Positions 3,855 to 51,696 of a DNA stretch of 64,000 nt are shown here, piece after piece. Where the stretch lies: assembly GCA_951406725.2 (NCBI GenBank), contig OX597826.1, forward strand, positions 71,238,001-71,302,000, in the 5' to 3' direction. Every line of letters starts with the position of its first letter. Position 1 is the stretch's first letter. The notes under the pieces were generated by a model. It saw only the letters and a program-made list of their open reading frames with translations, was not told where the DNA came from and made no database searches. The position numbers and the translations under genes were made by a program. The stretch is from Octopus vulgaris. Taxonomy: Eukaryota.

Positions 3855-3896
3855 GCATGGACCCGGGTTTCTGGGTATTTACCCGTCATCAGCACA
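3855..3896 (-). ncRNA. Type I hammerhead ribozyme (Penelope-type) in a pLTR-like remnant at ~3690-3945
   Basis: Minus strand: tgtg CTGATGA c-gggt-aaat-accc-a GAAA cccggg TC^ catg; palindromic minimal stem III. Confidence 0.75.
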
Positions 3897-4159
3897 TGAC
3901 AATCACTGGTCTTCGATGCGAAGGGGTCCCAATGCAAATACATATATCTGTTTTCCAGTGACTTCAAGATCAGTGACAAACAGAAGTAAAGTTTGACAGA
4001 AATATTAGCCATATTTCATAATTTTTAGGGGTAGACAAACAAGAAATAACAGTTGCTACCCAAGGGTAAAAATTGCCTTAAACATTGTAATGCATTCCCT
4101 TTTCCATGTGTTGTCATCAATTGCAAAGCTAATTAATTTTTTTGCTTTTATTTTTTTAG

Positions 4160-4174
4160 ATCGAAGCATTTTGT
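4160..4174 (+). CDS. 15-nt micro-exon (DRSIL), phase 1/1
   Basis: tttttttag|ATCGAAGCATTTTGT|gtaagt; consensus splice sites, preserves frame. Confidence 0.6.
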
Positions 4175-6068
4175 GTAAGTTTCAATTTATTCCATTGAGT
4201 GTTTATGCCTGTTATGTGTTGAGACTGTGTATGTACATTGTGATTGTGTATGTATTTGTGTTGTCAGTATTATATAGTTGTTGTGTTTGTGTATTGTGAC
4301 AATATGTATTTGTGTTGTTTGCTGTGAGTGTTTGTTAATATTTGTATATCTCGCATGAGTATATATCCCTTATTACATGAATATGTATCCTCTTTGTCAC
4401 TCTCACATAAACACACACACACACACACACATGCATGCATGCATTTATTCATGATCCTGCAACCATGCAACAGGTTATACTGGATTTCATGTTACCAGCA
4501 GCACTCTTGAAAGACCTCACAAGTGGTGAGAATGGGTATTAAAAATATCCTTATCTGCTGATAATTTTGTAATTCTCCTAGAAAAACTTTTAACTACTGT
4601 TTTTAACACATTATTGGGGTGATTTGATAGTTTGCTCATGTATCTTGTAACTTCACCTGGTTTCCTATAAGGATGGTATAATCCTGAGCTAATGTCTAAA
4701 GTAGTATCTAAAAAATTTACTACCTTTGTGCCATATTCATATGTAATGCCTAAGTTGAAGCTTTTAAAAAATTTTCAAATTCTTTTTCTCATTCTTTCCA
4801 TGACTGATTTGTTGTTGCTAGTGATTAAGCTATTTATTCCTTTCTATGGTGTTCTACCCTACCTGATCATATTATTTTTATAATAGCCTTTATGAAATTT
4901 AACCTAATTTTTGTACCCCTAAATATTTATATTAGTTATATATAACAGCACCAGTAGCTTTACAACTTATAATATACCTCTTAGATTATAATTAATATAT
5001 AGTTAGCGTGTTCTATTGCCCCAGTGCTTCTTTATTAAATGCCAGTAAATGCCAGTGATCAATCTTCATAGATACCATCTAATAAGTAAATATTTAAGTA
5101 TATGAATAAATATTAAACTAATTCTATGTAATTTCTTTTCTCCTCTATTGTTGTAAATTTTGGTATATACTCAAAAGTATTCAAAAATTAATCCTTTTGG
5201 TTGTAATATTCTTAATTTTTTTCTTGATAACCCTAACTTTTATCTTTATACAATATAACAATATTGTTTAAATCATTCAACTATAGTACCCCATGATAAA
5301 ATTTCCCCTATATTATCATCATTGGTTTTATTAGAGTCTTGCCCCTTTAACTGGTAACTAACATCTTGATTTAAGATCTTCCTTTACCAAACCTCATTAT
5401 AGACAGTTACTTTATACTACTTGACAAGTTTTATGACTATACCCACTATGATTCTGTCAACTCACTCAGGCCCTTTCCTACTGGACAATGCTCTTTGATC
5501 TTAGATTTTGATATGGAAAGATTTGATAAACAAGACTATAAATTGAAACTGACCCAAAAATCAGTGACAAGTTTTTTTCCTGATGTCTTAGTAGCTTCTA
5601 AATTGAAGTGAATACAGCATGGACTTTGTCTTCTTACCATCTTAGAGGATGTAGGTAAAATTGTACAAATGTGTCCAACTGATTAAATTAATTCTATTTA
5701 TTTGTGCAGCTGAGGATAGCTCTGCATTTAAATTGATGTAATGATTGCATTGTTCAATGAAATGGAGCCGCTTGAAACAATTGTCCTGCATCACCCCTGG
5801 ATATCCTGTTGCTTATTTTGATTTTATTCACCTTATTTTGAAACATATATGTATATATTTATGATATGTACACATACATAGATTCATATACATTCATACA
5901 TGTGTATACATACATTTACATGCACACTGACACTTTCATATGCTGCTGCACATACCAAAATCCATATATGGACATACATGTATTCATTCTTATCTCTCGT
6001 CCCTTCATTAGAACTGATTACACAATTATATTTTCATTTTCTCACAATTTTTTTTTTACTTTTTGCAG

Positions 6069-6095
6069 ATGCAGATGCACACGAACATTTACCTC
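6069..6095 (+). CDS. 27-nt micro-exon (YADAHEHLP), paralogue of 1530-1556
   Basis: ttttgcag|ATGCAGATGCACACGAACATTTACCTC|gtatga; the downstream intron is homologous to that of the 1530 exon. Confidence 0.65.
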
Positions 6096-6906
6096 GTATG
6101 AATTTATTTTATTATTATTATTATCCCTTTCTAATTTTCTCTTTGTTGTTGTTTTGTTGCAGGTCTGCCCTAATCAAATAGATTTATGGTTAAAAGCATG
6201 CCATCCATATTATATTATCAGACTGTTTATTTAGGAAACATGTCTGTCATTGCTTCTTTTTTTAGATGGTGGTGTATTATTATAGAGAGATTTGATTACT
6301 ATTTCTAGCAAGTTGGGTGACTGTGTAAAGCTTCTTTAGTGACACTTCAGCTTTTATTGTGAATAGTAATGATTTAAGGATTAAATTTTGGCTTTCTTTC
6401 ATTAAATTTACCTGAACTTCAGTATGAAAGCTAGATTTTAAAATTTATATAGACACATTTAATCATCTTAGACATTGGATACCTTGGACTACAATGTTCA
6501 ATGTGTTTTCTCTTTTAAGATGGTGGGACAGGATTAAGCTGGTCTACAATTTACATGACAACCCAACAAGTTTTCAAATATGTTCGTTTTCACTTAGTCT
6601 GAAGGAATTGACTGTTTTTTTACTTCATGTTTATCTAGGAAGGAACAAAGCAGGCGTTTTGTGGTTGACTGACCCGCTAAATGTAGCAGCAAAATTCGTT
6701 GCACATTACATTCAATTGTCTTAGCAAAAAGGACAGAATGGATAATGTAGACCAGGAGTTTACTAAGAGAAAGCACTTGATCGTAGGTCTACTCAACCAA
6801 TTAAACATATTTATCTACTTCATATTTATCTTCCTCTTGCATATCATTTCTAAAACATATTTTCATTACTCCTCTGAATATTCTGGAATTACTATTTTAA
6901 TTTGTA

Positions 6907-7419
6907 CTAGCAGTATCGCCCGGCGTTGCTCGGGTTTGTAAGGGAAATAACTATATAAGCATTTTTAGAGAGTTACTTCCCTTATAGATGCCAATTCGGG
7001 CTTTCTTAGCCATTTCTGTTTTGGTGTCTTCAAGCCATGAAGTCGTTGTTCTAAAAGAACGCTGGTCTCCTTGACAACGCTTTACGACGTTGATTTCCTT
7101 ACACTCCCTTCCCCACAGCTTCATGAGGGAGGGAAGAAGGGGGAGAAGCAAACAGGTGGAGGTGTTTGACCATGGACACCAACTCCGCCGCCATCGACAC
7201 ACGAAAAATTATGCATTAAAATGGAATAAAAAATGATGTTAAATTATTTTTTAAATCGTAGACTCATCGTAGATGCGCGCTAATACTCAGACGGGCTCGA
7301 TATGAATCACGACTATAAGATACCCGAATTTGGTTAAACTGCACCGCAAAATGTGGGAGTAGTTAGGAATCTAAATCGAAGGGGACAGACTCACACAACT
7401 ACAGTTTTATATATATAGA
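6907..7419 (-). mobile_element. Helitron-like element with a divergent interior
   Basis: Same TC...hairpin-CTAG termini as 1048-1438 but a different internal sequence. Confidence 0.7.
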
Positions 7420-7472
7420 TTTGTATTTTATTTTATTAAGGTAATATATTTAATTTCTTTCTTTATTTTCAG

Positions 7473-7499
7473 TTCATTCACTATCTGCAGATTCCTATC
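7473..7499 (+). CDS. 27-nt micro-exon (LHSLSADSY), phase 1/1
   Basis: ttattttcag|TTCATTCACTATCTGCAGATTCCTATC|gtaagt. Confidence 0.55.
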
Positions 7500-7922
7500 G
7501 TAAGTGATAAAATTTACTCCAACATAATAAATTACACGTAGATGTTCACTATATATTATATTCAGCTTTAGGTGTGACTCACAATCGTTCAACACATATC
7601 GCATTATTAGAGTCCGGATCACATTCATATGTAGATCACATCCTTCCAATCTTAATTGCAGTCTTTAGATGTGGATCACAAGCATCGTCTGTAGATCATA
7701 GTCGCTGCATGTGGATCAGTCCTTAGATGTGGTTCACAGTCTTTACATGTGGATTTTAGCCTTCACATGCAAATCACATTATTGAGATGTGGATCACATC
7801 GTTCAGGCATGTGTGACATTATCCCACTCTATATCACAGTTTTTAGACGTGGTTTGCAGTCGTTAGATGCTAATCATTGTATTTTGGTCTGGATTCGGTT
7901 CTTCAGATACATATCACAGTCT

Positions 7923-8149
7923 TTAACCCTTTAGTATTCAAACTGGCCATATCTGGCCAAAATATTTTATTCTGTTTTATGTTCAAACTGACCAGATCCA
8001 GGCTCTCACACCTACCCTACAATGTTATTCTACATTAAGTAATTACACAATCAACATCTTGAAGATATGAGATAATGCATGATTAATTCAAATCAATGGG
8101 AATCAATAAGCATTATGTTTGAAAGAATAATCAGAACACTAAAGGGTTA
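7923..8149. mobile_element. TTAA-type MITE
   Basis: TTAACCCTTTAG...CTAAAGGGTTA terminal inverted repeats. Confidence 0.65.
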
Positions 8150-8479
8150 GATGTAGATGACATGTGAAGCACACTTATTAGACACAGATCACATTAGTGA
8201 GATGTGAATCAAGTATGAATTGCAGTCTTTAGGTGTGAGTCATTGTCTTTCAATGTGAATCACATTATTTAGATAATAATCACATTCTTCACTTATGTAT
8301 CACATTCTTCAGATATGTACCACAGTCTTTAGATGCAGATCACACTATTGAGATGTGGATCACATTCTTTTGATGCGGATTGCTTGTGTTAGATGCAGAG
8401 CACTTTATTTCAATCAGTATCTCCTTCTTTAGATGTAGGTCATATTTTTTAGATGCAGATCATGTTATTCAGATATGAA

Positions 8480-8815
8480 TCAAGACCCCTGGACTGGAGA
8501 TACGTAAAAAGCACTATCCGAATCGTGGCCGAAGCCAGTGCCGCCTCGACTGGCTTCCGTGCAGGTGGCACGTAAAATGCACCAATCCGACCGTGGCCGA
8601 TGCCAGCCTCGCCTGGCACCAGTGCAGGTGGCACGTAAAAAGCACCCACTACACTCATGGAGTGGTTGGCATTAGGAAGGGCATCAAGCTGTAGAAACAT
8701 TGCCAGATAAGACCGGAGCCTGGTGCAGCCTTCTGGCTTCCCAGATCCCCGGTCGAACCGTCCAACCCATGCTAGCATGGAGAACGGACGTTAAATGATG
8801 ATGATGATGATGATG
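8480..8815 (+). mobile_element. RTE-related 3'-end repeat (short LINE tail/SINE)
   Basis: GTGGCACGTAAAAAGCACC subrepeats, TTAGGAAGGGCATC core, (TGA)n tail. Further copies at ~9863-10290, 14414-14590, 21300-21508, 26382-26730, 32220-32712, 41732-42020, 45556-45893, 46040-46395, 61525-61920. Confidence 0.8.
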
Positions 8816-9665
8816 GATCACAGTCTTTAGATGTGGATTACATCCTTGGAAGTGGATCATAGTTTTTAGATGTATATCATATTTAGAAATGGATTACATT
8901 CTTCAGATATGCATTACACACTTTAGGTGTTGATCACAGTCCTTAGATATTGATCACAATCTTCAGATATGAATCACAATCCTTAAATGTGGTTTGCAGT
9001 CTTTAAATATGGAGCACAATCTTCAAATGTGAATCACAGTTTGTAGATGCAAATCACATTATTTAGATTTGGAAAACAAGCTTTTGATGTCGATCACATT
9101 ATTTAGGCCTAGATCACCTTCTACAGATAAGTGTCACAAGATGTAGATGTGGAGCTGGTGATATCCCTCCTGGTTTAGGAGTGACTTGGTTTTAAGCAAG
9201 AGGAGCCAAGGCCAGAAATTTCTCAAATATAACCATCATTCAGTTGATCTTGTGTTTTCATCAATTTAGAAGCTTCACCCAAAATTATTCTACAGCAATA
9301 TTAAATATGTTTTAAACAACTTAAAACCATGGCAACTGAAGAAGGGGTTTTTTCCTTGTGTTAATTGTCCTGTACTCTATTTTTTTGTTGTTTAAGAAAA
9401 ATGTCCAGTTCTTTGGGTTTGTGTCTATGTTTTCGTTTCTCATTGTGTTCGACGTTTTTTTGGTGTCCTGTACTCATATATGCGTGTATATATACATGTA
9501 AAGGTAGGTACGTACATATATGTATATATATATGCATATGTTTTATTTATTAATATATATATAATTAATCATGGATAGAATGAATTCTGTCTACTGCCTG
9601 TTATTGTAAATGAGTGTTTATATTTTATTTCTCATTTCTTTCATTTTTTTCCTTTTTTTTTACAG

Positions 9666-9678
9666 AAGACTTAAACAA
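9666..9678 (+). CDS. 13-nt micro-exon (QDLN), phase 1/2
   Basis: ttttttttacag|AAGACTTAAACAA|gtaagt. Confidence 0.55.
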
Positions 9679-10318
9679 GTAAGTTGTTAATTCATTATCT
9701 CTCTCTCTTTCTTCCTCTCTCTCTCTCTCTCTCTGGAATAGTCTTCTTAACAATCTTGTATAAATTATTAATCCTCACTATGCTGGTGGAATTTTTACTA
9801 GTAATGTAACGTGCTAACCACATGCAAATCAGTTCTCAGGATCTCTTTCTATTGGTCATCCTCATCATCATCGTTTAACGTCCGCTTCCCATGCTAGCAT
9901 GGGTCGGATGGTTTGACTGAGGGCTGGCAAACCAGATGGCTGCACGAGGCTTCAATCTTGATCTGGCAGAGTTTCTACAGCTGGATGCCCTTCCTACCGC
10001 CAACCACTCCGAGAGTGTAGTGGGTGCTTTTACGTGCCACCAGCACGGGGTCAGTCAGGCAGTACTGGCAACAACCTCAATCGAATCTTATACACATGCC
10101 ACCGGCACAGAGGCCAGTAAGGCAATGCTGGTTACGATCACGCTTGAACGGTGTCTTTTACGTGCCACTGGCATGGAGGCCAGATAGCCGCTCTGGCAAT
10201 GATCATGCTCGGATGGTGCTCTTAATACCCTACTAGCACGGGGCTCAAGTGCCTGTAAGACGACACTGGTAACGATCACACTCAAATGCTGAAAATAGAA
10301 TATAAATGCTACATCACA

Positions 10319-10725
10319 GGCGCAGGAGTGGCTGTGTGGTAAGTAGCTTGCTAACCAACCACATGGTTCTGGGTTCAGTCCCACTGCGTGGCATCTTGGG
10401 CAAGTGTCTTCTGCTATAGCCTCGGGTCGATCAAAGCCTTGTGAGTGGATTTGGTAGACGGAAACTGAAAGAAGCCCGTCGTATATATGTATATATATAT
10501 GTATATATATGCGTGTGTGTGTGTCTGTGTTTGTCCCCCTAGCATTGCTTGACAACCGATGCTGGTATGTTTAAGTCTTCGTTACTTAGTGGTTCGGCAA
10601 AAGAGACCGATAGAATAAGTACTGGGCTTACAAAAGAATAAGTCCCGGGGTCGAGTTGCTCGATTAAAGGAGGTGCTCCAGCATGGCCACAGTCAAATGA
10701 CTGAAACAAGTAAAAGAGTAAAAGA
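10319..10725 (+). mobile_element. tRNA-derived SINE, family A
   Basis: GGCGCAGGAGTGGCTGTGTGGTAAG...GGTTCAGTCCC head, central (TA)/(TG) tract, GTAAAAGAG tail; more than 10 copies in the window. Confidence 0.9.
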
Positions 10726-11008
10726 GAGAGAGTATAAGCATCCACATACTTGCATGTGAAGGTGTATAGCTTAGTGGATAGTTTTATTTGGCTCATGACT
10801 GTAAGGGAGTGACACCAAAATATTTCCTCAAAAATTAATTTCATCTCTAAATCCAAGCTTTGTCTTATAGCTTGTTTCAGTCACTGGATCGTGGCCATGC
10901 TGGAGCACTGCTTTGAAGAGATCTTTTTTTTTTTGTTGTTGTTGTTTTGTTTTGTTTTTATTATTATGAATATGTATCAATTTTATTTTTTCATTTTTTT
11001 TTTTACAG

Positions 11009-11027
11009 TATGGAAATGAATATTTAA
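11009..11027 (+). CDS. Terminal coding exon (NMEMNI*)
   Basis: Long T tract + ttttacag|T ATG GAA ATG AAT ATT TAA; accepts phase 2 from the 9666 exon. Confidence 0.5.
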
Positions 11028-11492
11028 GCCACTGCACAGTCCATTTCTCATTTTAACTCAAGCGAAAACCTTAAGTGCCTGCTCTACATGCTGATCTCCA
11101 ATGGACACTGAAAAACTGACTGTGATAATCTTTCTAATAATGACTTTTAGGGACCCATTATTTCGTTATGCAACTATAAACGTTTTTTTTTTTTTTTTTA
11201 AATATGCTAAACATTTTTTATAAGACAATTCTGTGTTCCACTGTGTTAGCTGTGCTATTATATCACTTGTTAAGATTTTGCACTTATGAGCATATATCTA
11301 TCTTTGTGTCAAGTGAGGATGTACTCAATCTGGCTGGCGTCCCCCCACCCCGCCCCAGATTGATGAGTAGTCAGACAGTTGACAGGATTTCTGAAGGTGG
11401 TGTTGCAGACTAATAAACCACGAGCATCGCAGAACCCCAGCATCTTTGTCCCCTCCTCATTTCTGGAGCTAAAGCCATAGTCGCCATGCACA

Positions 11493-14140: not shown

Positions 14141-14848
14141 AAATGTAGGGGCCATTCACTCTGCTTGATGAACAAACTTTAGAACCACCAGTTATTTCCA
14201 CTCATTTATTTATCTTATTGTCTTTATTTTTGTTTTTTTATTTATAATTTTCTCAATCTTTTATATTTATATTCCTTTTTTTTTTTTTGTATTCATATAT
14301 ATGTGTTAGTTTAAAAAAAAAAATTTTTTTATGAACATTCCGTAATCTGAAATGCTAAAGTTATAAACCCCTATGTTTCTCTTTGTTACGTATTGGTTTA
14401 TCCACTTATATTGCCACTACACTCACGGAGTGGTTGGCGTTAGGAAGGGCATCCAGCTGTAGAAACACTGCCAAATCAGACTGGAACCTGGTGCAGCCTT
14501 CGGGCTTCCCAGACCCCAGTTGAACCATCCAACCCATGCTAGCATGGAAAGCGGACGTTAAACGATGATGATGATGATGATGATGATGATTGCCAGTCAA
14601 CTGATCATGATCTTTATGAGTGTATACTTAACAGCTTTCACAGATGCACATATCTATAAATTGACTGAAGAAAGGGAAATATGGTACAAACATTTGATTT
14701 TGTAACTGAAAAGCCTTTGTTTTGACATCAATAAAGTGGAGAGCCATTATAATTGTGTAATGTACTTTTCTGGAATCTTTTGGTTTTATTTTATTTTCTA
14801 TCGTTTTACATTCTCCATCAACCATGCATCAAACATTGAACATTATTT

Positions 14849-15059
14849 ACATTGTTTACATTAGACGGATATTTGTCCTCATCTTGTTTGTTGTTAACAC
14901 AACGTTTCGGCTGATAAACCCTCCAACCTTCATCAGGTGAGAACCCAGGTTTGAAATTTCCCCAAGACACCTGATGAAGGCTGGAGGGTACATCAGCCGA
15001 AATGTTGTGTTAACAACAAACAAGATGAGGGCAAATATCTGTCAAATGTAAATAATGTA
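14849..15059. mobile_element. Inverted pair of Penelope-like termini, each with a hammerhead ribozyme
   Basis: ~90-bp arms; plus strand gacac CTGATGA a-ggctg..cagcc GAAA tg TT^gtgtt at 14966-15011, mirrored at 14896-14939. Confidence 0.75.
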
Positions 15060-18164: not shown

Positions 18165-18222
<58 letters not shown>

Positions 18223-18226
<4 letters not shown>

Positions 18227-18630
18227 TACAGAGATGTACTTGCATAGCAAGTGACCTGATCTGAGATCGTGTGGTGGAACGTAAACAATTGCAGCGTGGA
18301 AGGTGTTTATAAGCCATTTAAGAAACACAAAAACCGTTAGATTCACTTCGACATTTAAATTTAATTTGTCAAACTATTTTCATCGCTTTGAGACCGCCAC
18401 CTGTTCACTGACAAAAAAAAGATGCAGCAGAGAATTTTGTCAGTGAACAGGTCGCGGTCTCAAAGCGACGAAAATATTTTGACAAATTAAATTTCAATGT
18501 TAAAGTGAATCTAATGGTTTTCGTGTGTTTCTTAAATGGCTTATAAACACCTTCCACGCTGCAATTGTTTACGTTCCACCACACGATCTCAGATCAGGTC
18601 ACTTGCTATGCAAGTACATCTCTGTAATGT
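18223..18630. mobile_element. ~190-bp-arm palindrome of Penelope-like termini with a G3:C8 hammerhead
   Basis: Arms ~18223-18416 and ~18434-18630; tttgtca GTGAACA g-gtcgc..gcgac GAAA atat TT^tgacaaa at 18436-18486. Confidence 0.72.
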
Positions 18631-18651
18631 ATATATTCCACGCTGCAATTG

Positions 18652-21711: not shown

Positions 21712-21760
21712 GAAAAAACAAGTCAAGATAGAAAATGCTAAAATAATTTTATAAAGAACA

Positions 21761-21805
21761 TTTCAGTACCGGTTTCGGTCATTTTGAGACCTTTTCAACT
21801 GTAAA
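21761..21805 (-). ncRNA. Type I hammerhead, U3:A8 core variant, in a Penelope-like remnant
   Basis: tttacag TTGAAAA ggtc-tcaaaat-gacc GAAA ccgg TA^ ctgaaa. Confidence 0.68.
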
Positions 21806-22130
21806 GATTAAATAATTAAATTTAGAAAAATTAAAAGAAAAGTTTTTTTTAAGGAATATTTGTACAGTGTTCAAATATAAGTGGCATTTTCCTTGTTTCT
21901 GCCTTTCTCTGTCTCTCTTGTTTGCACTTGTGTGTTCGAGGTCAGGTCTTTGTGAATTCTTGGTAGGGTAGAAGAAGAAGAAGAAGGATGATGAGGAGAA
22001 AGGGTAGAAAAATTTGGGAGTGCCTTGATTGTCGTATTTTGAATGGTCAGTTGCAGTTCAATTCAGGAGAATATTTCTATTGAAAGGTTTGTTTATAGAA
22101 TTTGCGTAGGTGTTATACTAAAAAACATTA

Positions 22131-36195: not shown

Positions 36196-36322
36196 ATCTT
36201 ACAGCTGTTTCGGCCATGTAGATAAGTATGTCTCATTTTACCAATATTAGCCTTTTATGGTAGGTCAATATATAGATATAAATGAGACATTTACAAAAAT
36301 ATCATAAGGCCTCTTCGGAGAT
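36196..36322 (-). ncRNA. Type I hammerhead, C4 variant, long stem II
   Basis: atct CCGAAGA ggcc...ggcc GAAA cagctg TA^ agat. Confidence 0.62.
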
Positions 36323-36817: not shown

Positions 36818-38092
36818 GAGGGGCGTTCAATAAGTAATGCCCCTGACCCACTTCCCATCGCAGTAGAGCAACAAAACTTGGTACAGTTATTAGTCTTTTT
36901 CTACATAGGACCCACCAAGAGGTACGCATTTCTCCCATCATTTGATGCAGCTCTGGAGACCGTTTTTGTAGAAGACCCCAGCTTGGTCCTCCAACCACGA
37001 CGTGACTTCAGAAATCAAGGCTGCATCATCTGGGAAATGCTTTCCTTTCAAAAACAACTTCATGGCTGGAAAGAGGAGAAAATCAGAGGGTGCAAGGTCA
37101 GGAGAGTAGGGGAGAGGGGGGAGGGGTTCATAGCCACACGCCTGTGCTTCTGATCTGGCGACACGCGAGTTGTAGACCGGAGCGTTGTCGATGCCTTTGC
37201 TGATCTTGCCCCGCCTCATGATTTTGATAGCTTCTCTTAATTTCCTAAAAAGTGAAGCATAATAGGCTCCTGTAATTGTGGTACCCTTTGCCAGGAAATC
37301 TGTCATCACTACTCCGTCCTGGTCCCAGAAGACTGTGAGCATGACCTTGCCAGTGGAGGGCTGCACCTTTGCCTTCTTTAGAGGAGGTGAGTCATGGTGC
37401 TTCTACTGCATTGACTGGGCTTTGGTCTCTGGATCATAGTGATGGACCCAGGTTTCATCCTGTGTAATCAGTCTTTTGAAAAATTTTGACTCATCTTCTT
37501 GGCACATCTCCAAATTCATCCTTGAGCACTCGACGCGTTTTTGCTTCTGGAAAGGTGTGAGCAACCTGGGAATCCAACTAGCAGACACTTTTTGCATATG
37601 CAAATGGTCATGAATGATAGTTTCCACAGACCCGGTACTAATCTTGATCTCATGGGCTATTTGGCGAATAGTTATGCATCGATCTTCCAAAATGGCAGCC
37701 TCAACTTGACAGACAGATGCCTCATCAATAGCAGAAGGGGGCGACCAGATCTGGGAGCTGTTTCCACAGAGCTCCGACCATGTTTGAATTCACGATGCCA
37801 GCGTTTTACAAGGTCATATGATGAGGCATCATCACCATAAGTTACTTTCATTTCATCAAAAGTCTCCCATGGTGTGCATCCTTTCAAATACAAAAACCGG
37901 ATCACTGCTCGACACTCAACAGGCTCCATTTCACACTTGACTCTGTTCAAACACCTGTAAATCAGAAACTGCAATTAGTTCAGAGCTGTAATTTGCCACT
38001 TAATCTATAGAGATATAAATAATTGCACATGCAAAATTTCAGCTAGATCAAATAACTGCAAGTGAGTCAGAGGCATTACTTATTGAACGTCC

Positions 38093-38241: not shown

Positions 38242-38277
38242 GTATGACGTTTCGAGCGGAGCTCTTCATCGGAAACA
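38242..38277 (-). ncRNA. Minimal type I hammerhead, C4 variant
   Basis: tgttt CCGATGA a-gagc-tcc-gctc GAAA cg TC^ atac; stem I has a mismatch. Confidence 0.55.
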
Positions 38278-40180: not shown

Positions 40181-41045
<865 letters not shown>

Positions 41046-41342: not shown

Positions 41343-41728
41343 GTGGCTGTGTGGTAAGTAGCTTGCTAACCAACCACATGGTTCCGGGTTCAGTCCCACT
41401 GTGTGGCATCTTGGGCAAGTGTCTTCTGCTATAGCCCCGGGCCGACCAAAGCCTTGTGATTGGATTTGGTAGACGGAAACTGAAAGAAGCCTGTCGTATA
41501 TATGTATATGTATGTATGTGTATGTGTTTGTGCGTCTGTGTTTGTCCCCCTAGCATTGCTTGACAACCGATGCTGGTGTGTTTACGTCCCCGTCACTTAG
41601 CGGTTCGGCAAAGAAACCGATAGAATAAGTACTGGGCTTACAAGGAATAAGTCCCGGGGTCGATTTGCTCGACTAAAGGCGGTGCTCCAGCATGGCCACA
41701 GTCAAATGACTGAAACATGTAAAAGAGT
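41343..41728 (+). mobile_element. SINE family A
   Basis: Near-full match. Confidence 0.9.
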
Positions 41729-42019
41729 ATATGTGGCCGATGCCAGCGCCGCCTCGACTGGCTTCCATGCCGGTGGCACGTAAAATACACCAATCCGACC
41801 GTGGCCATTGCCAGCCTCGCCTGGCACCTGTGCAGGTGGCACATAAAAAGCACCCACTATTCTCACGGAGTGGTTGGCGTTAGGAAGGGCATCCAGCTGT
41901 AGAAACATTGCCAGATAAGACTGGAGCCTGGTGCAGCCTTCTGGCTTCCCAGATCCCCGGTCGAACCGTCCAACCCATGCTAGCATGGAGAATGGACGTT
42001 AAACGATGATGATAATGAT

Positions 42020-42525
<506 letters not shown>

Positions 42526-42535
42526 CCTCATCCAA

Positions 42536-43266
42536 CGACAGACACCCATGCCAACCCCCATGCTTGCGAAGACATGTTGGAGCAAGCGAAATCGAAATCG
42601 AAACCGAATTGAATCAGCCAGGATCCCTGGCCTGGTGGTACGTAAAAAGCACTATCCGACTCATGGCCGTGGCACGTAAAATACACCAATGCGACCGTAC
42701 GACAGGCACCCATGCCAACCCCCTTTGCTTGTGAAGACATGTTGGGGCAAGCGAAATCGAAATCGAATTGAACAAGCCAGGATCCCTGGTCTGGTGGTAC
42801 GTAAAAAGCACTATCCGACTCGTGGCCGTGGCACGTAAAATACTCCAATGCGACCGTACGACAGGCACCCATGCCAACCCCCTTTGCTTGTGAAGACATG
42901 TTGGGGCAAGCGAAATCGAAATCGAATTGAACAAGCCAGGATCCCTGGTCTGGTGGTACGTAAAAAGCACTATCCGACTCGTGGCCGATGCCAGCACCGC
43001 CTCGACTGGCTTCCGTGCCGGTGGCACATAAAATACACCAATCTGACCGTAGCCGTTTCCAGCCTCGCCTGGCACCTGTGCAGGTGGCACGTAAAAAGCA
43101 CCCACTACACTCACGGAGTGGTTGGCGTTAGGAAGGGCATCCAGCTGTAGAAACATTGCCGGATTAGACTGGAGCCTGGTGCAGCCTTCTGGCTTCCCAG
43201 AACCCCGGTCGAACCGTCCAACCCATGCTAGCATGGAGAACGGACGTTAAGCGATGATGATGATGA

Positions 43267-43270
<4 letters not shown>
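42536..43270 (+). mobile_element. RTE 3'-end repeat with a ~160-bp internal tandem repeat
   Basis: Unit CGACAGGCACCCATGCC... starts at ~42536, 42700 and 42859. Confidence 0.8.
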
Positions 43271-43313
<43 letters not shown>

Positions 43314-43314
43314 G

Positions 43315-43411
<97 letters not shown>

Positions 43412-44209
43412 TGCGTGATTTAAGGAAGATTTCACTGTTGTCTCTAGCATATTTCATGACTGGTAAGGTTGATAAAAATCGTAAGTTTAAAAAAAATTTT
43501 AATAGCATGAATGAGTTTATGCTGTTAATGGGGAGAAAATATTATTTTTCTACTCTGGGCACAAGGCCCAAAATTTTTGGAGAGGTGGGGGGGGGGGGCA
43601 GTCAATTAGATTGACCCTAGTATGCAACTGGTACTTAAATTATCAACCCGGAAAGGATGGAAGTTAAGGTCGACCTCAGTGGAATAATGGGGAGAAAATA
43701 TTGGAAAACATTAATACTTGTCAGTTAACAAGAAACGACGAAGGTGGTCATGGAACATGCTAAAAACAACAACCAAATCTTCCTTTAATCCCACACCATT
43801 TTGCCTGAAAATATTCCCTATAGTATATTCATGATCTTCTGAAGTGTCCTTTTTGTGATATATTTACACAACATGAAGTTAAAGAATGAAAAAAAAATCA
43901 TTGAAATTAGTCATTACTCATTTTATCCCATTTTGACATCATTTTTTGAAACTGGAAAATTGTGTGGATAAAAATTTACTTGGAATCCAATTGAGGATAA
44001 TGATCGTTAAACACGAAAAAATCATCCAGATATTTTATTAGCAGCCTCAATTAAACTCAGGTCAAAGTAGAATGAAAATTTCTTGAAACAAGAGGACCTG
44101 CACCTAACTATATTTTGGACTACATCAACTTCTAGAACAAGTGAACTATGCCCTCAGATTCAGCTTGAAAAAGTACATCAATACACCAATTTTGAACTTT
44201 TTCACTTAA

Positions 44210-44608
44210 CTAGCAGTATAGCCTGGCGTTGCTTGGGTTTGTTTTCTTTTCGACCCTTTAGAATTGGAATTATTGAAAAGTAAAAATTTTGAATTATGTA
44301 GCTTGTTATTCTCTTTAAGTGAACATTTTTCTGGTTGAAATACACCAAAAAATGGTAACACAGCAGTCAAAAAGTCATAAAAATAGGGATTTTCATAGAA
44401 AAAAAGCACCTTTTTGATGTAAATAAATCTTGGTCTTTACATGGTCTGATTTGAATTTTTCCTTCTACGGAATGAAGAGCAAGCCTTCTTCTATCATATT
44501 CTCAATTTTGGTCAACTTGCGCCACAGGGTCTCGGAGGAGATAGTGTTAGTTGAAGGCTACCAAACCTGCCACACACACACAAACAACTTCAGCTTTATA
44601 TATATAGA
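44210..44608 (-). mobile_element. Helitron-like element
   Basis: Matches 1048-1438. Confidence 0.8.
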
Positions 44609-44949
44609 TTTTTATAATTTCAAAAAGTGCAGTCAAACAGAAAGACCCATAAAATTTATAAGTCCAGACTGTTTGTCAACTTCATTTCAGTTCATACATA
44701 AACTTGCCACACGCAGCTTTCTCTAATTCAATAACTTCTGCTTGTCACGTAATTGTTTGATATATCCTGCCAACTGCCAGCTGTTGCTATTTAAATCTTA
44801 CCCCTTCGATAGAGATACGATAGGATCAATTGCATGGAAGAGCCTGCTTTAGGTGTACATGCCAAATTTATAGCTTCATGTGATGTATGTCGGCAGTCCT
44901 CTAACTGATAATGATGAACTCTACTTCTCCATCACACTCAGAGTGGGAG

Positions 44950-45550
44950 GCTGATGTCTGTAGGGAACTGAGATGTTGCTGTGGTAGGCCCCTTGACCCC
45001 ACAGGTCTTCATGGTCTGTCTTGCTGCTTAAATGCTGGTCACTTTGCTTGTCACACTGAGCTAATCCTAATCATTAAGCAGGCTCTGGCTCAGATTAATA
45101 TCCCCACAGTCCTGGAGCCATTGGGATTATCCAGCAGTGATGGAAAGAGACTAGATGGTCTATTTCTATTTCTTTTATACCCACAAGGGGCTAAACACAG
45201 AGAGGACAAACAAGGACAGACAAATGGATTAAGTCAATTATATCGACCCCAGTGCGTAACTGGTACTTATTTAATCAACCCCGAAAGGATGAAAGGCAAA
45301 GTCGACCTCGGCGAAATTTGAACTCAGAACGTAGCAGCAGACGAAATACCACTAAGCATTTCACCCGGTGTGCTAACGTTTCTACCAGCTCACCGCCAAT
45401 GGTCTTATCCTCTGTCCCTGGGTTAGAAGTAGGTGCCTCATTTGGGATGCCAAAGTTTGCGACTCCTTTGCTTCCACTCACATCCTGGATGCTACAGTTA
45501 ATGGGAGGATCACTGCTTCCATAGCCAAACAGAAGAAAACCCTGAAGTAT
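44950..45550 (+). pseudogene. CRE-like RLE retrotransposon C-terminal fragment, split by a SINE at ~45170-45398
   Basis: CCCGRPLDPTGLHGLSC...HTEL..IIKQAL..INIPTVLEPLGL...GKRLDG. Confidence 0.65.
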
Positions 45551-46479
45551 TAGTTCGTTGCCAGCACTGCTCCGACTGGCCTCCGTGCCGGTGGCACGTA
45601 AAAAGCACCATCCGATCGTGGCCGTTGCCAGCCTTGCTTGGCCCTCGTGCCGGTGGCACGTAAAGAGCACCATCCGTCCGTGGCCGTTTGCCAGCCCCGT
45701 CTGGCACCTGTGCGGGTGGCACGTAAAAAGCATCCACTACACTCACGGAGTGGTTGGCGTTAGGAAGGGCATCCAGCCATAGAAACACTGCCAGATCAGA
45801 CTGGGCCTGGTGCAGCCTTCTGGCTTCCCAGACCCCAGTTGAACCGTCCAACCCATGCTAGCATGGAAAGCGGACGCTAAATGATGATGATGATTTGGAA
45901 TTGAAAGTAAACTATCTCTTCCAAACTGTGGCGTTTGAGATGATCGGAGGGACTGGGCTACTAAACAAGGTGTCGGGTGATGCCTTCACAGACATCACCC
46001 AACACCTTGTTTATATGTATGTTTATATGTTATAAATAAAAATTAAATGGAAATTGTATTTGTGATACTCGTGCCAGTGACATTTAAAAAGCACCATCCA
46101 AACGTGGCCAATGCCAGAGCCGCCTTGACTGGCTTCTATGCCGGCGGCATGTAAAAAGCACCAACAGACCATGGCTGTTGCCACCTCCTCCGGCCCCTGT
46201 GCCGGTGGCACGTAGAAAGCACCCACTACACTCACGGAGTGGTTGGCATTAGGAAGGGCATCCAGCTGTAGAAACACTGCCAGATCAGACTGGAGCCTGG
46301 TGCAGCCTCCTTGCTTCCCAGACCCCAGTCGAACCGTCCAACCCATGCTAGCATGGAAAACGGACGTTAAACGATGATGATGATGATGATGATGATATAA
46401 AAATAAAAACCTTTACTTAAGACAAAGGACAGCATAAACCAATCAATCTACACACAAAGGGGTTAAATTTATTTAAATA

Positions 46480-46882
46480 CTAGCAGTATCGCCCGGCGTT
46501 GCTTGGGTTTGTTTTGACCCTTTAGAATTGGAATTTTTGAAAAGTAAAATTTTGCATTATGTAGCTTGTTATTTATTTTCTTTATGTGAACATTTTCCCG
46601 GTTGAAATACACAAAAAAATGGTGACACAGCAGTCAAAAAATCGTAAAAAATAGGGATTTTCATAGAAAAAAAGCACCTTTTTGATGTAAATAATTTTTG
46701 GTCTTAACATGGTCTGATTTGAATTTTTTCTTCTACGGAATGAAGAGCAAGCCTTCTTCTATCATTCTCTCAATTTTGGTCAACTTGCACCGCAGGGTCT
46801 CGGAGGAGATAGTGTTAGTTGGAGGCTACCAAACCTGCCATACACAGACAACTTCAGCTTTATATATATAGAGAGAGAGAGA
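46480..46882 (-). mobile_element. Helitron-like element
   Basis: Matches 1048-1438. Confidence 0.8.
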
Positions 46883-47036
46883 TACCCTCTGTATAATTGA
46901 GGAAACAAAGGCGTTTGCATTGATATGTTTCATATTTCTGCAGCATTTTGTTGATGAATTTAAAAGCTAAAAATAATCGGTTTTTTTTCTTTTGTTTTGT
47001 TTTTACTTATCTATTCATTTGCCCATCCCATCTTAC

Positions 47037-47300
47037 ATATATATAAGAAGGCAACGGTGCTTGTGATCAGATACTTTAGCTTTCTTCGGCTTATTTGTGA
47101 CTAAATTGAAAACCAGCTTATGTTTTTGGGTTTGTAGCCGGGCATCTCGTACAGGTTTATGCCACTCCATATATGAGAAGCCAAAATGCTTTTGCACTCC
47201 ATTATTTCAGCTTTCTTCGACATATTTGTGGAGAAGTTTGAAAATTTAAAACCATCGTAAGTTGACGAATTTCTCCGCGCTCTCTTCAACCGTCACTTCC
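47037..47300 (-). promoter_or_regulatory. Candidate promoter and first exon of a minus-strand transcript
   Basis: Locally CpG-rich unique DNA; GGAAGTGACG (ETS + CRE half-site) on the minus strand at 47291-47300; donor gtaaga at 47036. Confidence 0.4.
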
Positions 47301-48329
47301 ACCCCTTGAGAAACTCAATTGTATGTCACAAAATATAATAGGAACACTGAAGTGTTTATGGAAGCGTTTCTTTTTTCTCTCGCCTTTTTATTATTTATCA
47401 TTTTTTCGATTTCTTTCGTTTTTTTACAAACCTGTTTCTGACGAATCTCAGATGTCCTGCTTTGTTTCTGTTTTTTTTTTCAGTTATAAAACAATATATG
47501 ACTTAGTAGACACGTGAAGTTTATGCGAATATATTCATTTACTGTTATTTTTAGCCATAAAGACATTAATTTATATAAATTCAAATTACGTAAACAAAGA
47601 TGAAAGTATACAAAGCTTGCTTTAGAAGCGTTAAGATGTATTGAAAGTCAAGGAAATGATTTTATTCTCAAACACAGGATAATGTTGATAATATTGCATG
47701 AACAGGATAAACTATAGATATTTTTCTCCTAAATTAAATTAAATCCTATTCGAGCACTGTATACAATAATTTCATTATCATTTTATTAAATTATTTCCCA
47801 TTCGGATAAGTTTGACCAAACATCTGGCAACACGTCATAAGGTGGTTTTGAATTTAATATAATCGGGTTGTTTCTTATCAACCGTCAGTCGTATAAACAT
47901 CCGGGATGTTCACTTATGATTTTTTCGAGTCAACAAAATGGTAAATATATATATATATTTATATATTTTATAATATTTTTTCTATGTTGTTAAGTCCTGA
48001 GCAACACCTCCCCCCCCCCCCTATCCTGTACTTCTTTGTTTATGTTCTAGGTGCTGACTACATTACGTAGCTTTTGTTGTTATTTATTTTTAACCCTTTC
48101 GTTACCAACCCGCCTAAAACAGCTTCTGGCTCTGTAATGCAAATGTTTTGTTTTCATAAGTTTCGAATTAAAATCTTCCACCAAACCTTAGTCACAAATA
48201 CTGTTCCTAACACTAGCTGAATGACAACTAAGTTATTTTACTAAATTCTTTGTTATATTTAAAGTAATTGAAAGAAACTCAGAGCATCTCAAAATAAATA
48301 CAGTAATGAAAGGGATTTGATTACATCTG

Positions 48330-48790
48330 TGGAGGACAAATGTTCGCTGTGGTAGGCCCCTCAAGCCCACAGGCCTTCATTGTTTGGTTTGCCGTCTTAA
48401 TGCTAGTCGTTTCGCTCATCACGTTGGCCCCCACAGGTCTTCAGGGTCTGCCTTGCTGCCTAAATGCTGGTCGCTTCGCTCGTCACACTGAGCTAAACCT
48501 AATCATTAAGCGGACCCTGGCTTGGGTTAATATCCCCTCAGTTCTGGAGCCGGTGGAATTCCTCAGAAGTGAAGGGGAGAGACCAGATGCTTTCATCCTT
48601 TGTTCCCCGGATAAGAAGTAGATGTCTCACCTGGGACGTCACTGTCTGTGACCCTTCTGCTCTCTCTCTCTCTCTCTCTCTCGCATCTTGGATGCTGCTG
48701 TCATTGGGGGTGAGGTGGAGGCGCAGCTTCCGTAGCTGAACGGAACAAAGGTCATCTCTACAAAACGAAAGGTTGCCCAGATTTTTTTGA
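48330..48790 (+). pseudogene. CRE-like RLE retrotransposon fragment
   Basis: GLPCCLNAGRFARHTELNLIIKR..NIPSVLEP...GERPDA...TWDVTVCDP. Confidence 0.65.
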
Positions 48791-49298
48791 TTTTTTTTTT
48801 TATAGAAGTTAAAGCTAGCACTGATCGCATCCAAGACGTCAGATGTAAACAAACAATGAGATTGAAGATGGAAAAAAAAAAAAAAACGGGGGTACTACTT
48901 AAGAAGAGTGGTCCCGGTGTGCGCACTCGCGTACTCGTGCATCCGCGCTAGCTAGTCGTGACTAGTCGATCCTTACTTTGTGTTTTTGTGATTTATTTAC
49001 TTTATTTTCCAAGGGCACAATGACCACATGCAACTCCAGGCTGAACCCAGCCGCTAGCTCCCTAAGGATTACCGGGCATTCCGTCCTGACATCATATCTT
49101 CTCCTTTCTGATCCCTCATCCTTCCTCCACAGAGGGGATGCTTTTTTTCCCCTTTTTCTTCTTTTTCATTTTTTTTTTCTTTGCTTATGTTTGAGTTTAC
49201 TTCAATTTTGGATTGGGATTGGTTACCTTTCGATAAAGGCACACGGAAAATGAAACCATTTCTTTGGCAATTTCCATAAAAAATTTTCTTTTTTTCTC

Positions 49299-49444
49299 TG
49301 TGGTAAGTAGCTTGCTAACCAACCACATGGTTCCGGGTTCAGTCCCACTGCATGGCATCTTGGGCAAGTGTCTTCTGCTATAGCCCCGGGCCGACCAATG
49401 CCTTGTGAGTGGATTTGGTAGACGGAAACTGAAAGAAGCCTGTC

Positions 49445-49506
<62 letters not shown>

Positions 49507-49700
49507 CTGTGTTTGTCCCCCTAGCATTGCTTGGCAACCGATGCTGGTGTGTTTACGTCCCCGTCACTTAGCGGTTCGGCAAAAGAGCCGATAGAATAAG
49601 TACTGGGCTTACAAAGAATAAGTCCCAGGGTCGATTTGCTCGACTAAAGGTGGTGCTCCAGCATGGCCGCAGTCAAATGACTGAAACATGTAAAAGAGTA
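49299..49700 (+). mobile_element. SINE family A
   Basis: Near-full match. Confidence 0.9.
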
Positions 49701-50527
49701 TCACTTAAGTTTATGTATTTTTTTCTGTATGTATTACGTGTTTATGTATATTTGTGTAAGTACTGTATATGTATGTGTATATATTATGTGTTTATATATA
49801 TTTGTGTAAGTACTGTATATGTATGTGATCACCGTGACCGACCAGGCTATCAGATGTTGTTACACATCGCTGGTCGCAATGCGCTTCGCATTGTTCTAGC
49901 CTTCAAATGACGCCACCCCACTGGCTAAGCGAGCAGAAAGTTGTGGCGAAAGAGTACAGCAGGGATCGCCACCATCCCCTGCTGGAGCCTCGTAGAGCTT
50001 TAGGTGTTTTCTCTCAATAAATCGAAACCGCGATCCTACGACCGCTGCCCTAACCATTGGGCCATTGCGCCACCACGTATATGTATGCGTATGTATAAAT
50101 AAACATGGCAATTCAGCTGAAAAAAAAAATTAAGAAATAGACATACACACAGATATACATACATGCACGTAAACACATACATATGTTTATTTACATACAA
50201 AAATATACATACATGCACACATAATAAACAGAAGGGCCAAACTTAGAGGGGTCAACAGAAAATGAATACGGGGTCGTGAAGCGTATGGGATTTACATAGA
50301 AATGAATTTAAAATTTGCAATAATAATTCTCTAAAAGGAATATAGACAGTAACTGCTCGACAACATAAGGGACTAAAGCCATCTGAATATGGCTAGGGAC
50401 AGGGCAGGGTGGTGGGGGTGTTACTGTTGCATTTAGCCCCAGGCGAACATCGACGTCACCAGAAAGGCTCGACACCGTCACGGTGCCCTAAACCTGCAAA
50501 GGGAGGTAATTCCCCGATGAAGCGGAA

Positions 50528-50579
50528 ACCACACACGGACCATGGTTTCAAGGTGTATTGCCTATCATCGGCGTGTGGT
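50528..50579 (-). ncRNA. Type I hammerhead (CCGAUGA core), unit 1
   Basis: accacacg CCGATGA t-agg-caataca-cct-t GAAA ccatgg TC^ cgtgtgtggt. Confidence 0.78.
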
Positions 50580-50886
50580 AGGCCTCCGCTTCCTCGACGA
50601 ATTCTCTCTCTGCAGGATTTTCTTATATAGATTTTCAAGCAAAATAAATTTGCTGATTTCGAAAATCTGTTCGAAAGCAATAATAATTCTCTAAAAGGAA
50701 TATAGACAGTAACTGCTCGACAACATAAGGGACTAAAGCCATCTGAATATGGCTAGGGACAGGGCAGGGTGGTGGAGGTGTTACTGTTGCATTTAGCCCC
50801 AGGCGAACATCGACGTCACCAGAAAGGCTCGACACCGTCACGGTGCCTAAACCTGCAAAGGGAGGTAATTCCCCGATGAAGCGGAA

Positions 50887-50938
50887 ACCACACACGGACC
50901 ATGGTTTCAAGGTGTATTGCCTATCATCGGCGTGTGGT
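50887..50938 (-). ncRNA. Type I hammerhead, unit 2
   Basis: Identical to unit 1. Confidence 0.78.
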
Positions 50939-51246
50939 AGGCCTCCGCTTCCTCGACGAATTCTCTCTCTGCAGGATTTTCTTATATAGATTTTCAAGCA
51001 AAATAAATTTGCTGATTTCGAAAATCTGTTCGAAAGCAATAATAATTCTCTAAAAGGAATATAGACAGTAACTGCTCGACAACATAAGGGACTAAAGCCA
51101 TCTGAATATGGCTAGGGACAGGGCAGGGTGGTGGGGGTGTTACTGTTGCATTTAGCCCCAGGCGAACATCGACGTCACCAGAAAGGCTCGACACCGTCAC
51201 GGTGCCCTAAACCTGCAAAGGGAGGTAATTCCCCGATGAAGCGGAA

Positions 51247-51298
51247 ACCACACACGGACCATGGTTTCAAGGTGTATTGCCTATCATCGGCGTGTGGT
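51247..51298 (-). ncRNA. Type I hammerhead, unit 3
   Basis: Identical to unit 1. Confidence 0.78.
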
Positions 51299-51644
51299 AG
51301 GCCTCCGCTTCCTCGACGAATTCTCTCTCTGCAGGATTTTCTTATATAGATTTTCAAGCAAAATAAATTTGCTGATTTCGAAAATCTGTTCGAAAGCAAT
51401 AATAATTCTCTAAAAGGAATATAGACAGTAACTGCTCGACAACATAAGGGACTAAAGCCATCTGAATATGGCTAGGGACAGGGCAGGGTGGTGGGGGTGT
51501 TACTGTTGCATTTAGCCCCAGGCGAACATCGACGTCACCAGAAAGGCTCGACACCGTCACGGTGCCCTAAACCTGCAAAGGGAGGTAATTCCCCGATGAA
51601 GCGGAAACCACACATATGAGAATTCGTCGAGGAAGCGGAGGCCT

Positions 51645-51696
51645 ACCACACGCCGATGATAGGCAATACACCTTGAAACCATGGTCCGTGTGTGGT
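51645..51696 (+). ncRNA. Type I hammerhead in the inverted unit
   Basis: CCGATGA at 51653-51659, GAAA at 51675-51678, GUC^ cleavage after 51686. Confidence 0.78.

Follow-up and report, generated by a model that had tools for sequence, protein, structure and literature searches.

The question raised by this 64-kb stretch of Octopus vulgaris DNA (the window) is whether the hammerhead motifs in it constitute a genuine ribozyme population, where they come from, and whether the C found at core position 4 of several of them is an inherited state or a product of decay.

Hammerhead motifs in the window

The window contains 14 hammerhead copies from nine insertion events. The initial annotation had listed eight loci with their cores, all of which were recovered in place and on the expected strands; its count was short by four copies, with cores at 5710(+), 14936(-), 18408(-) and 51653(+). 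The first of these also fails the thresholds of the single-core-change scan described below. The nine events represent about eight families, because locus 3892 and the array at 50.3-51.8 kb are distant homologues outside the ribozyme. The type I three-way junction (stems I, II and III, GAAA, UH) passes a tier in all copies except 18408, in which stems II and III are decayed. Positions 3 and 8 form a Watson-Crick pair in 14 of 14 copies (C:G in 11, G:C in two and U:A in one), and we infer that G3:C8 and U3:A8 are compensatory swaps of the tertiary pair. Stem III, annotated as palindromic nearly throughout, is an exact palindrome in seven of the nine events when the listed copy is taken, and a wobble palindrome at 14971 and 40819. 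One extra base follows A9 in copies 14971, 18443 and 38272. Inverted pairs occur in three of the nine events.

The motif counts were compared with those in 300 dinucleotide shuffles made in 500-nt blocks of the window. With paired 3:8, the strict tier yields five U4 matches against 0.070 in shuffles (maximum 2) and five C4 matches against 0.007 (maximum 1). The loose tier yields seven U4 matches (six events) against 0.45 (maximum 4) and six C4 matches (three events) against 0.093 (maximum 2). None of the 300 shuffles reached the observed counts of the paired-3:8 U4 or C4 classes, and the control classes (unpaired 3:8, or a purine at position 4) are at background level. Shuffled DNA, suggested in the annotation as a control, thus gives about 1% of the strict match rate. 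Weak pattern matches at 4792, 6359, 23278, 23450 and 34452 belong to background classes and were dropped.

Two published descriptors, the cuganga minimal descriptor and CYGANGA, recover two and one of the 14 copies, respectively; standard searches would therefore miss most of them. The claim that CUGANGA searches overlook a large population is borne out to this extent, while its genome-wide reach rests on one window.

Loci outside the array

Pattern scan and alignment place at 3700..3896(-) a CUGAUGA hammerhead (core start 3892, N17 at 3860, stem III ACCCGGGU) together with about 160 nt downstream that are homologous to the array unit. Outside the ribozyme, its alignment score against the array is 73, compared with a mean of 19.9 and a maximum of 29 in shuffles (n = 300), and on this likeness the locus is regarded as a U4 relative of the C4 array family. 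Two plus-strand loci have a long stem II and a stem I of 6 bp: CUGAGGA at 5704..5791, with an extended stem II and stem III ACAAUUGU (pattern scan, fold), and CUGAUGA at 40813..40903, with the wobble palindrome ACGAUUGU (pattern scan).

Two loci are head-to-head inverted pairs. The pair of truncated elements at 14848..15059 (pattern scan) consists of two CUGAUGA hammerheads with an extra A, at 14898-14939(-) (core 14936, stem III ACGU) and at 14966-15011(+). The stem III of the latter is AUGU, a wobble palindrome, and not ACGU as annotated; the exact ACGU is that of its partner and of 38272. The pair at 18217..18636, flanked by microsatellites, carries GUGAACA cores at 18365-18415(-) (core 18408, the decayed copy) and at 18436-18486(+) (core 18443, fold z -3.04), so that a natural G3:C8 pair is present in both arms of one insertion.

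The remaining loci are on the minus strand. UUGAAAA (U3:A8) at 21761..21805 has stem II GGUC/GACC and stem III ACCGGU (pattern scan, fold). CCGAAGA (C4) at 36196..36322, core 36318, has a long rod as stem II and stem III ACAGCUGU (fold z -2.24). CCGAUGA (C4) at 38242..38277, core 38272, has an extra A and stem III ACGU, passes the loose tier only, and has a stem I of one pair, a mismatch and two pairs; it is the weakest locus of the set and, taken alone, the least certain as to chance. Both of these C4 loci are single copies in the window.

The 360-bp array

The array is bounded by a 15-bp target-site duplication, with the left copy at 50302..50316(+) and the right copy at 51842..51856(+), the first 3 bases of the latter being common to the element end. 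Between the two are a direct arm of 3.6 head-to-tail 360-bp units (50317..51614(-)) and an inverted, 5'-truncated arm (51618..51844(+)). A 3' tail of about 63 nt (50317..50379(-)) occurs in the direct arm only. A partial tandem, an inverted 5'-truncated copy and a one-sided tail are therefore all present. Among the nine events, a target duplication and a tail were seen at the array alone.

The unit is non-coding, and the Pfam search of the array's one frame of at least 100 aa gave no match. The three full copies, which differ by 0-1 mismatch and 0-1 gap, carry one C4 hammerhead each (50532-50577, 50891-50936 and 51251-51296, all (-), pattern scan). A fourth, at 51647-51692(+) with its core at 51653, lies in the inverted arm and matches the other three without a difference across 95 nt. 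The 5' end of the direct arm falls just 2 nt beyond the position where cleavage is predicted; this, at most an indirect hint of cleavage, was noticed post hoc and would arise by chance in about 2% of cases.

The first array hammerhead is enclosed by a predicted extended stem I rod (50505..50606(-); -44.7 kcal/mol, z -5.24) that was matched by none of 200 shuffles, and the fold of the circular monomer reaches -117 kcal/mol (z -6.1, 100 shuffles) with 66% of bases paired. The hammerhead itself has a stem II of just 3 bp and a U.U mismatch at 10.1-11.1, where locus 3892 has C.A, and a predicted 3-bp hairpin over C3-C4 competes with the core fold. A possible switch in the unit, in which the C4 core would pair with a 7-nt antisense copy of itself, was set aside for now (predicted core pairing 0.0 in two folds), and an opposite-strand hammerhead was rejected (no GAAA following its stem II).

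The array family in sequencing runs

The array family was compared among runs X1 (DNA, 1413 contigs), X2 and X13 (other organism labels) and X4 (only guessed to be RNA). C4 accounts for 98% of the summed contig depth in X1 (non-C4, 3,096.5 of 155,689.7, or 2%). This depth does not measure copy number, X1 may itself derive from the source sample, and the 80% likeness cut leaves out older U4 relatives such as 3892. C4 is also present in the single spanning contig from X2 and in the single one from X13. C4 is the consensus of the array's subfamily, and its presence in the array family is therefore not post-insertion decay. The family-consensus check proposed in the initial annotation thus gives C4 in the one family sampled, and the contention that C4 is not decay holds for the array, one of three C4 families, the only one sampled beyond the window.

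The stem III change from CCAUGG to CCUAGG, which preserves the palindrome, makes up 13% of X1 depth; the CCCGGG of the relative 3892 likewise keeps the palindrome despite change. The joints 50676-50319 and 50674-50317 are present in X1 and X4, and the element end 50317 is found beside different flanks in X2 and X4. A 359-nt contig from X13 wraps the array unit from end to start, which fits tandem DNA as well as a circle. The family is too recent for a direct test of core conservation: in X1, 13 sites vary at a level of 5% or more. A U3U4 form occurs in the DNA run X1, and in X4 with other linked changes, on which grounds C-to-U editing was rejected as its source. X4 contig ends at 50536 resemble cleavage ends, but the polymorphism at 50506 is exactly 30 nt away and they were rejected as graph artefacts; a depth drop in X1 5' of the cleavage site was disregarded since depth is not copy number.

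No RNA run carrying the array is listed on record. A metagenome scan with the array core pattern returned 16 loci, none of which is a hammerhead or resembles the unit, and pattern scans of prokaryote genomes and viral contigs gave no matches, including for the 38272 family.

Changes in the core

C4, which CYGANGA descriptors admit, replaces the strict U4 consensus in six of the 14 copies and three of the nine events (36318, 38272 and the array). U4C is the sole enriched single core change, with six matches from three events against 0.01 expected, while the other 28 single-change classes together give one match against about 1.4 expected, at thresholds set after the loci were seen. Under a simple model, three random changes share one class with p 0.001-0.003.

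U4C is known from a viroid variant that remains viable (cited in PMC3088659), and it considerably lowers activity in vitro (PMC3088659). In a pairwise scan, changes in the CUGA region were all low except for the G:C swap (PMC9901934), and the CYGANGA descriptor with its C/U degeneracy has been described (PMC13481778). Natural U4C hammerheads (PMC3088659, PMC13481778) have the same substitution with the rest of the core kept, as here; in the present case, however, U4C predominates in a multi-copy animal repeat and occurs at three unrelated loci in one window. Engineered C3G/G8C double mutants, in which the swap partly restores cleavage (PMC11167929, PMC9901934), have a natural counterpart in the G3:C8 pair of the window; a literature search, with Lünse et al. 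2017 outside its reach, found no other natural example. Among the 56 representatives in Fig. S3 of PMC4209133, where the descriptor fixed cuganga, a U3.G8 core is shown and none has C4 or G3:C8.

C4 is probably an inherited state of an amplifying family, and most likely makes a slowed ribozyme that depends on dimerisation, on a bound protein or on the long stem I. The candidate C4 ribozyme of the array has slightly better than even prospects of cleaving at a useful rate. That C4 would be a repeatedly selected, throttled or protein-dependent core, active in vivo in several unrelated families, appears rather unlikely.

Origin and alternative explanations

The loci are probably minimal type I hammerheads from the terminal repeats of Penelope-like element (PLE) families and from non-coding derivatives of these, the array being a recent retrozyme-like insertion. 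The annotation had not traced the motifs to these known sources, the terminal repeats of PLEs and the non-LTR retrozymes. PLE terminal-repeat hammerheads (Cervera and De la Peña 2014, PMC4209133) are likewise of type I with a short palindromic stem III, have an extra base between 9 and 10.1, and comprise many families per genome, with opposite-strand pairs and U3:A8 families. In contrast to them, stem II is lengthened by 50-90 nt at several loci in the window, and the loci are without an attached PLE reading frame. None of 16 nearby frames chosen from a set of 67 gave a PLE-related Pfam match, and a PLE-RT-like fragment at 4520-4774(-) is 630 bp away from 3892, with a microsatellite in between. 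An RT plus GIY-YIG frame would be missing from copies that are short and truncated.

In the proposed mechanism, several PLE families whose terminal repeats carry hammerheads would have left copies that are mostly short and truncated, in part accompanied by the inverted partners typical of PLE insertion. The array would stem from one recent insertion of a non-autonomous element, with a PLE reverse transcriptase/endonuclease acting in trans to copy a 360-nt RNA in circular or multimeric form. Copying may begin at two internal positions separated by about 63 nt, and two ribozymes may pair via their palindromic stems III, with cleavage following N17. The array matches the PLE architecture of a tandem, an inverted 5' copy and a one-sided tail (10.1101/2021.04.23.441226), and two internal start sites produce a tail in PMC11167929. 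Two observations count against the model: the array tail, at about 63 nt, exceeds the 30-40 bp given in 10.1101/2021.04.23.441226, and the inverted arm of the array and both other inverted pairs start upstream of intact cores and so were copied from uncut RNA. In PMC7229834 and 10.64898/2026.07.22.740005, the non-LTR retrozymes of animals consist, like the array, of strongly self-paired units of 170-400 nt that are arranged head to tail and carry a single type I hammerhead each; mussel units measure 350-390 bp, against 360 bp here, and axolotl HHR_Amex2 shares the U.U at the base of stem II. The array differs in having C4 as subfamily consensus and an explicit PLE-type footprint (inverted arm, tail, 15-bp duplication). 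Dimers of Xenopus retrozymes showed no cleavage in eight of nine cases (10.64898/2026.07.22.740005).

Chance matching of a relaxed pattern in repeat-rich DNA is highly improbable as an explanation. Five of the nine loci, as monomers, do fold no better than shuffles (z -0.4 to -1.0), and no Rfam hammerhead model reaches its gathering score in the window, the best match being a weak one to HH9 at 21745-21812 (19.3 bits, threshold 52, E 4.8); monomer stability, however, is not expected of minimal hammerheads, and the shuffles refute chance at the level of the set. It is improbable that the array is a satellite, formed where it stands when unequal crossing-over expanded a single fragment of a terminal repeat, and not a copied multimeric or circular RNA. 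This route has been proposed for retrozyme arrays (10.64898/2026.07.22.740005) and is compatible with the wrapped X13 contig, but the tandem arm, inverted arm and tail all lie within one exact duplication, and the near-identity of the units fits one recent insertion.

The alternatives for C4 concern its meaning. It is unlikely that only the array inherited C4 and that 36318 and 38272 acquired it by independent T-to-C decay of old copies: each is single and without a relative in the window, C4 in their families is known from that copy alone, and stem I of 38272 is already broken, but no further single core change exceeds background, and 36318 has all stems intact with a long, paired stem II. 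It is possible, with the odds against it, that the origin is as proposed and the C4 ribozymes are catalytically dead, the fold being kept as a PLE-protein binding or initiation signal or as a passive passenger. Low U4C activity in vitro (PMC3088659, PMC9901934), the further handicaps of the array core (U.U, short stem II, competing hairpin), PLE insertion in vitro that is unaffected by ribozyme mutants and proceeds without cleavage (PMC11167929), and the prolific hammerhead-less Naiad PLEs (10.1101/2021.04.23.441226) are all consistent with it, and the 5' end near the ribozyme could mark where the reverse transcriptase stalled on the rod of stem I. Drift, however, would be expected anywhere in the core, yet recurrence is at position 4 only; palindrome-preserving changes persist in stem III, and U4C is the change that stays viable in a viroid.

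Implications

That PLEs supply minimal hammerheads in large numbers was already known in general terms; abundance, palindromic stem III, U3:A8 pairs and opposite-strand pairs have been published for PLE and retrozyme hammerheads. Less ordinary are the enrichment of U4C, its status as consensus of the array subfamily and the natural G3:C8 pair. Hammerheads of PLEs and retrozymes cleave poorly in vitro, and one assay showed insertion to proceed without them. Fixed for a change that lowers activity, the young, multi-copy C4 family, beside which stand a U3U4 subfamily and a U4 relative, is a natural experiment on selection, and poses the question of whether cleavage rate, protein help or the fold alone is selected. 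As the recovery by the two descriptors illustrates, surveys of animal genomes can greatly underestimate the number of ribozymes. Were the window representative, nine events in 64 kb would correspond to about 140,000 per Gb, among the densest ribozyme loads known; this load would be mostly invisible to published descriptors, and the genome would amount to a natural mutagenesis library for hammerhead cores.

Hammerhead copies in the window

All the cores listed in the initial annotation are present in the window, but its count of eight loci was short: there are 14 copies arising from 9 events, the overlooked ones (named, like the others, by core position) being 5710 (+), 14936 (-), 18408 (-), and 51653 (+). 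The structured scan left positions 3, 4, and 8 free, and specified stem I, a stem II of at least 3 bp in which one added base or a mismatch at the first pair was allowed, and a palindromic stem III of 2-8 nt. Against 300 block-wise dinucleotide shuffles of the window, the counts with a paired 3:8 are far in excess: 5 with U at position 4 (U4) vs 0.070 and 5 with C (C4) vs 0.007 in the strict tier, and 7 vs 0.45 and 6 vs 0.093, respectively, in the loose tier. None of the 300 shuffles reached these counts in either tier. Counted as events, the loose tier holds 6 U4 (shuffle maximum 4) and 3 C4 (shuffle maximum 2). Cores with an unpaired 3:8 or a purine at position 4 show no excess over the shuffles.

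Homology between locus 3892 and the array at 50.3-51.8 kb extends downstream of the ribozyme, and the 9 events therefore represent about 8 families. The three C4 contexts, namely the array, 36318 (36196-36322, -), and 38272 (38242-38277, -), yield no pair with z > 3 when compared pairwise; 38272, with an interrupted stem I, is the weakest locus. Monomer folds are no better than those of shuffles at five of the nine loci, and the Rfam search called none of these loci. At 5710, 36318, and 40819, stem II is lengthened by 50-90 nt into predicted rods, too long for the loop that the published minimal descriptor allows. The G3:C8 ribozyme 18443 (+) and the U3:A8 ribozyme 21798 (-) agree at 9 bases spanning stem and loop II, which may reflect related families or a common contact.

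Decay or inheritance of the C4 core

C4 may be viewed as decay of single copies or as an inherited state. In a test that required a single departure from the core, at whichever position (200 shuffles; thresholds set after the loci were seen), U4C gave 6 matches from 3 events vs 0.01 expected, and the remaining 28 classes together gave 1 match vs about 1.4 expected. Under a simple model, three random changes would fall in one class with p 0.001-0.003.

The array subfamily was sampled by aligning contigs of 4 of the 24 listed public runs to one unit at 80% likeness, a cut that leaves out relatives below 80%; summed contig depth is not equivalent to copy number. The subfamily has C4 as its consensus: U4 accounts for only 3,096.5 of 155,689.7 summed depth (2%, five contigs) in run X1 (DNA by guess, possibly the source sample; 1413 contigs aligned), and C4 recurs in spanning contigs of X2 (320 nt) and X13 (359 nt), one contig per run, under other organism labels. 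The X13 contig wraps from unit end to start. The summed depth of the array flank in X1 is 97-160. No further conserved core position is listed as varying at 5% among these contigs, and in stem III CCAUGG becomes CCUAGG in 13% of X1 depth with the palindrome kept. The array's older relative at 3892 carries U4. The initial view that C4 is not decay thus holds for the array subfamily, which was the one sampled among the three C4 contexts; U4C is also the lone enriched single change.

U at position 3 has the same X1 depth as U4. The U3U4 form (U3.G8 wobble, CCUAGG stem III; window 50570-50571) makes up 2% of X1 depth and 58% of that of X4 (RNA by guess), the latter from single contigs (U3U4, depth 21.2; C4, depth 15.3). 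This is a weak hint that the U3U4 subfamily may be favoured in expression or stability.

Insertion architecture and proposed mechanism

Head-to-head inverted pairs occur in three events (14848-15059, 18217-18636, and the array). The array consists of 3.6 units of 360 bp (direct arm 50317-51614, -) plus an inverted arm (51618-51844, +), all within an exact 15-bp duplication (50302-50316 and 51842-51856). Its full units differ by at most one mismatch and one gap, and a tail of ~63 nt is present on one arm only. The footprint of Penelope-like elements (PLEs) described in 10.1101/2021.04.23.441226 (excerpt) has the same components: tandems that are partial, a second copy that is inverted and truncated at its 5' end, and a tail on one side. 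Two internal reverse-transcription start sites are linked to the tail in PMC11167929 (excerpt). As a circle, the 360-nt unit folds strongly (z -6.1, 100 shuffles), like non-LTR retrozymes (PMC7229834, excerpt). None of the 16 reading frames submitted, of 67 nearby, had a PLE-related Pfam match.

A PLE protein would work in trans on multimeric or circular 360-nt RNA, and two ribozymes would join via stem III, then cut after N17. The predicted stem III duplex is -11.2 kcal/mol for the array; at 14936, 14971, 18408, 18443, and 38272, with palindromes of 4-6 nt, it is weak or unfavourable. The direct arm begins 2 nt beyond the predicted cut, a coincidence of ~2% by chance that was spotted post hoc; a reverse transcriptase halted by the stem I rod could leave the same start. 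Several published results, known from excerpts, count against efficient cleavage: U4C considerably lowers in vitro activity, yet is viable in a viroid (PMC3088659); in a pairwise scan, a G:C swap alone rescued the CUGA region (PMC9901934); ribozyme mutants had no effect on insertion in vitro, and the ribozyme required protein (PMC11167929); and 8 of 9 Xenopus dimers showed no cleavage (10.64898/2026.07.22.740005). On balance, useful cleavage by the C4 form is slightly favoured.

Within extended stem I, each array unit also carries a 7-nt stretch (50514-50520, -) that is perfectly antisense to the C4 core. It lies 51 nt downstream from where the core starts, and no pairing between the two is predicted.

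Surrounding repeats

The window is rich in microsatellites, dispersed short repeats, and mariner and LINE fragments, a landscape that suggests octopus DNA. An 85-aa fragment (4520-4774, -) resembles, with Atlas feature scores of 0.96-0.97, the C-terminal part of a PLE reverse transcriptase; HTH_animal (PF26215) occurs in 17% of members of one Atlas cluster for it, and a Pfam search of the fragment gave no relevant match. It and the 3892 ribozyme are probably separate insertions. A broken mariner transposase (36941-37974, -; Transposase_1, HTH_48) sits between the single-copy C4 ribozymes 36318 and 38272. LINE fragments (RVT_1, zf-RVT) and integrase-like frames lie at 56968-58958 (-), 53130-53726 (-), and 53676-54987 (+); the integrase-like frames read as an LTR element, with no Pfam match for the two submitted. 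A tRNA match with anticodon CAU (61994-62065, +; 45.5 bits) has a copy of a dispersed repeat immediately after it and is possibly a pseudogene. A degenerate 20-bp minisatellite forms several blocks (2908-2961, 7708-9119).

Relation to known hammerheads

PMC4209133 (excerpt) describes thousands of minimal hammerheads per genome, including families with U3:A8, pairs on opposite strands, palindromic stem III, and a base added after A9; its Fig. S3 includes a U3.G8 core. In contrast to the window, C4 and G3:C8 are absent from all 56 of its representatives, but the descriptor used there fixed cuganga. U10.1.U11.1 is already known (PMC7229834, PMC3088659; excerpts), and CYGANGA is in use, with C/U degeneracy reported at position 4 (PMC13481778, excerpt). 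In our renderings, CYGANGA matches 1 of the 14 window copies and cuganga just 2, in agreement with the earlier expectation that CUGANGA-only searches miss many. The literature search turned up neither an animal family with a C4 consensus nor a naturally occurring G3:C8 pair, and no hammerheads from octopus; such variants may already be listed in Lünse et al. 2017. The available part of PMC13282606, on octopus repeats, does not mention 'ribozyme', and PMC6765202, PMC11014351, and PMC6155905 (excerpts) serve as background only.

The density is 9 events in 64 kb, in a window picked for richness, so that any genome-wide figure is an extrapolation from one window. The loci are real and mostly a case of known PLE and retrozyme hammerheads. 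Within that kind they are set apart by a C4 core that is both inherited and recurrent, by a naturally occurring G3:C8 pair, and by their density.
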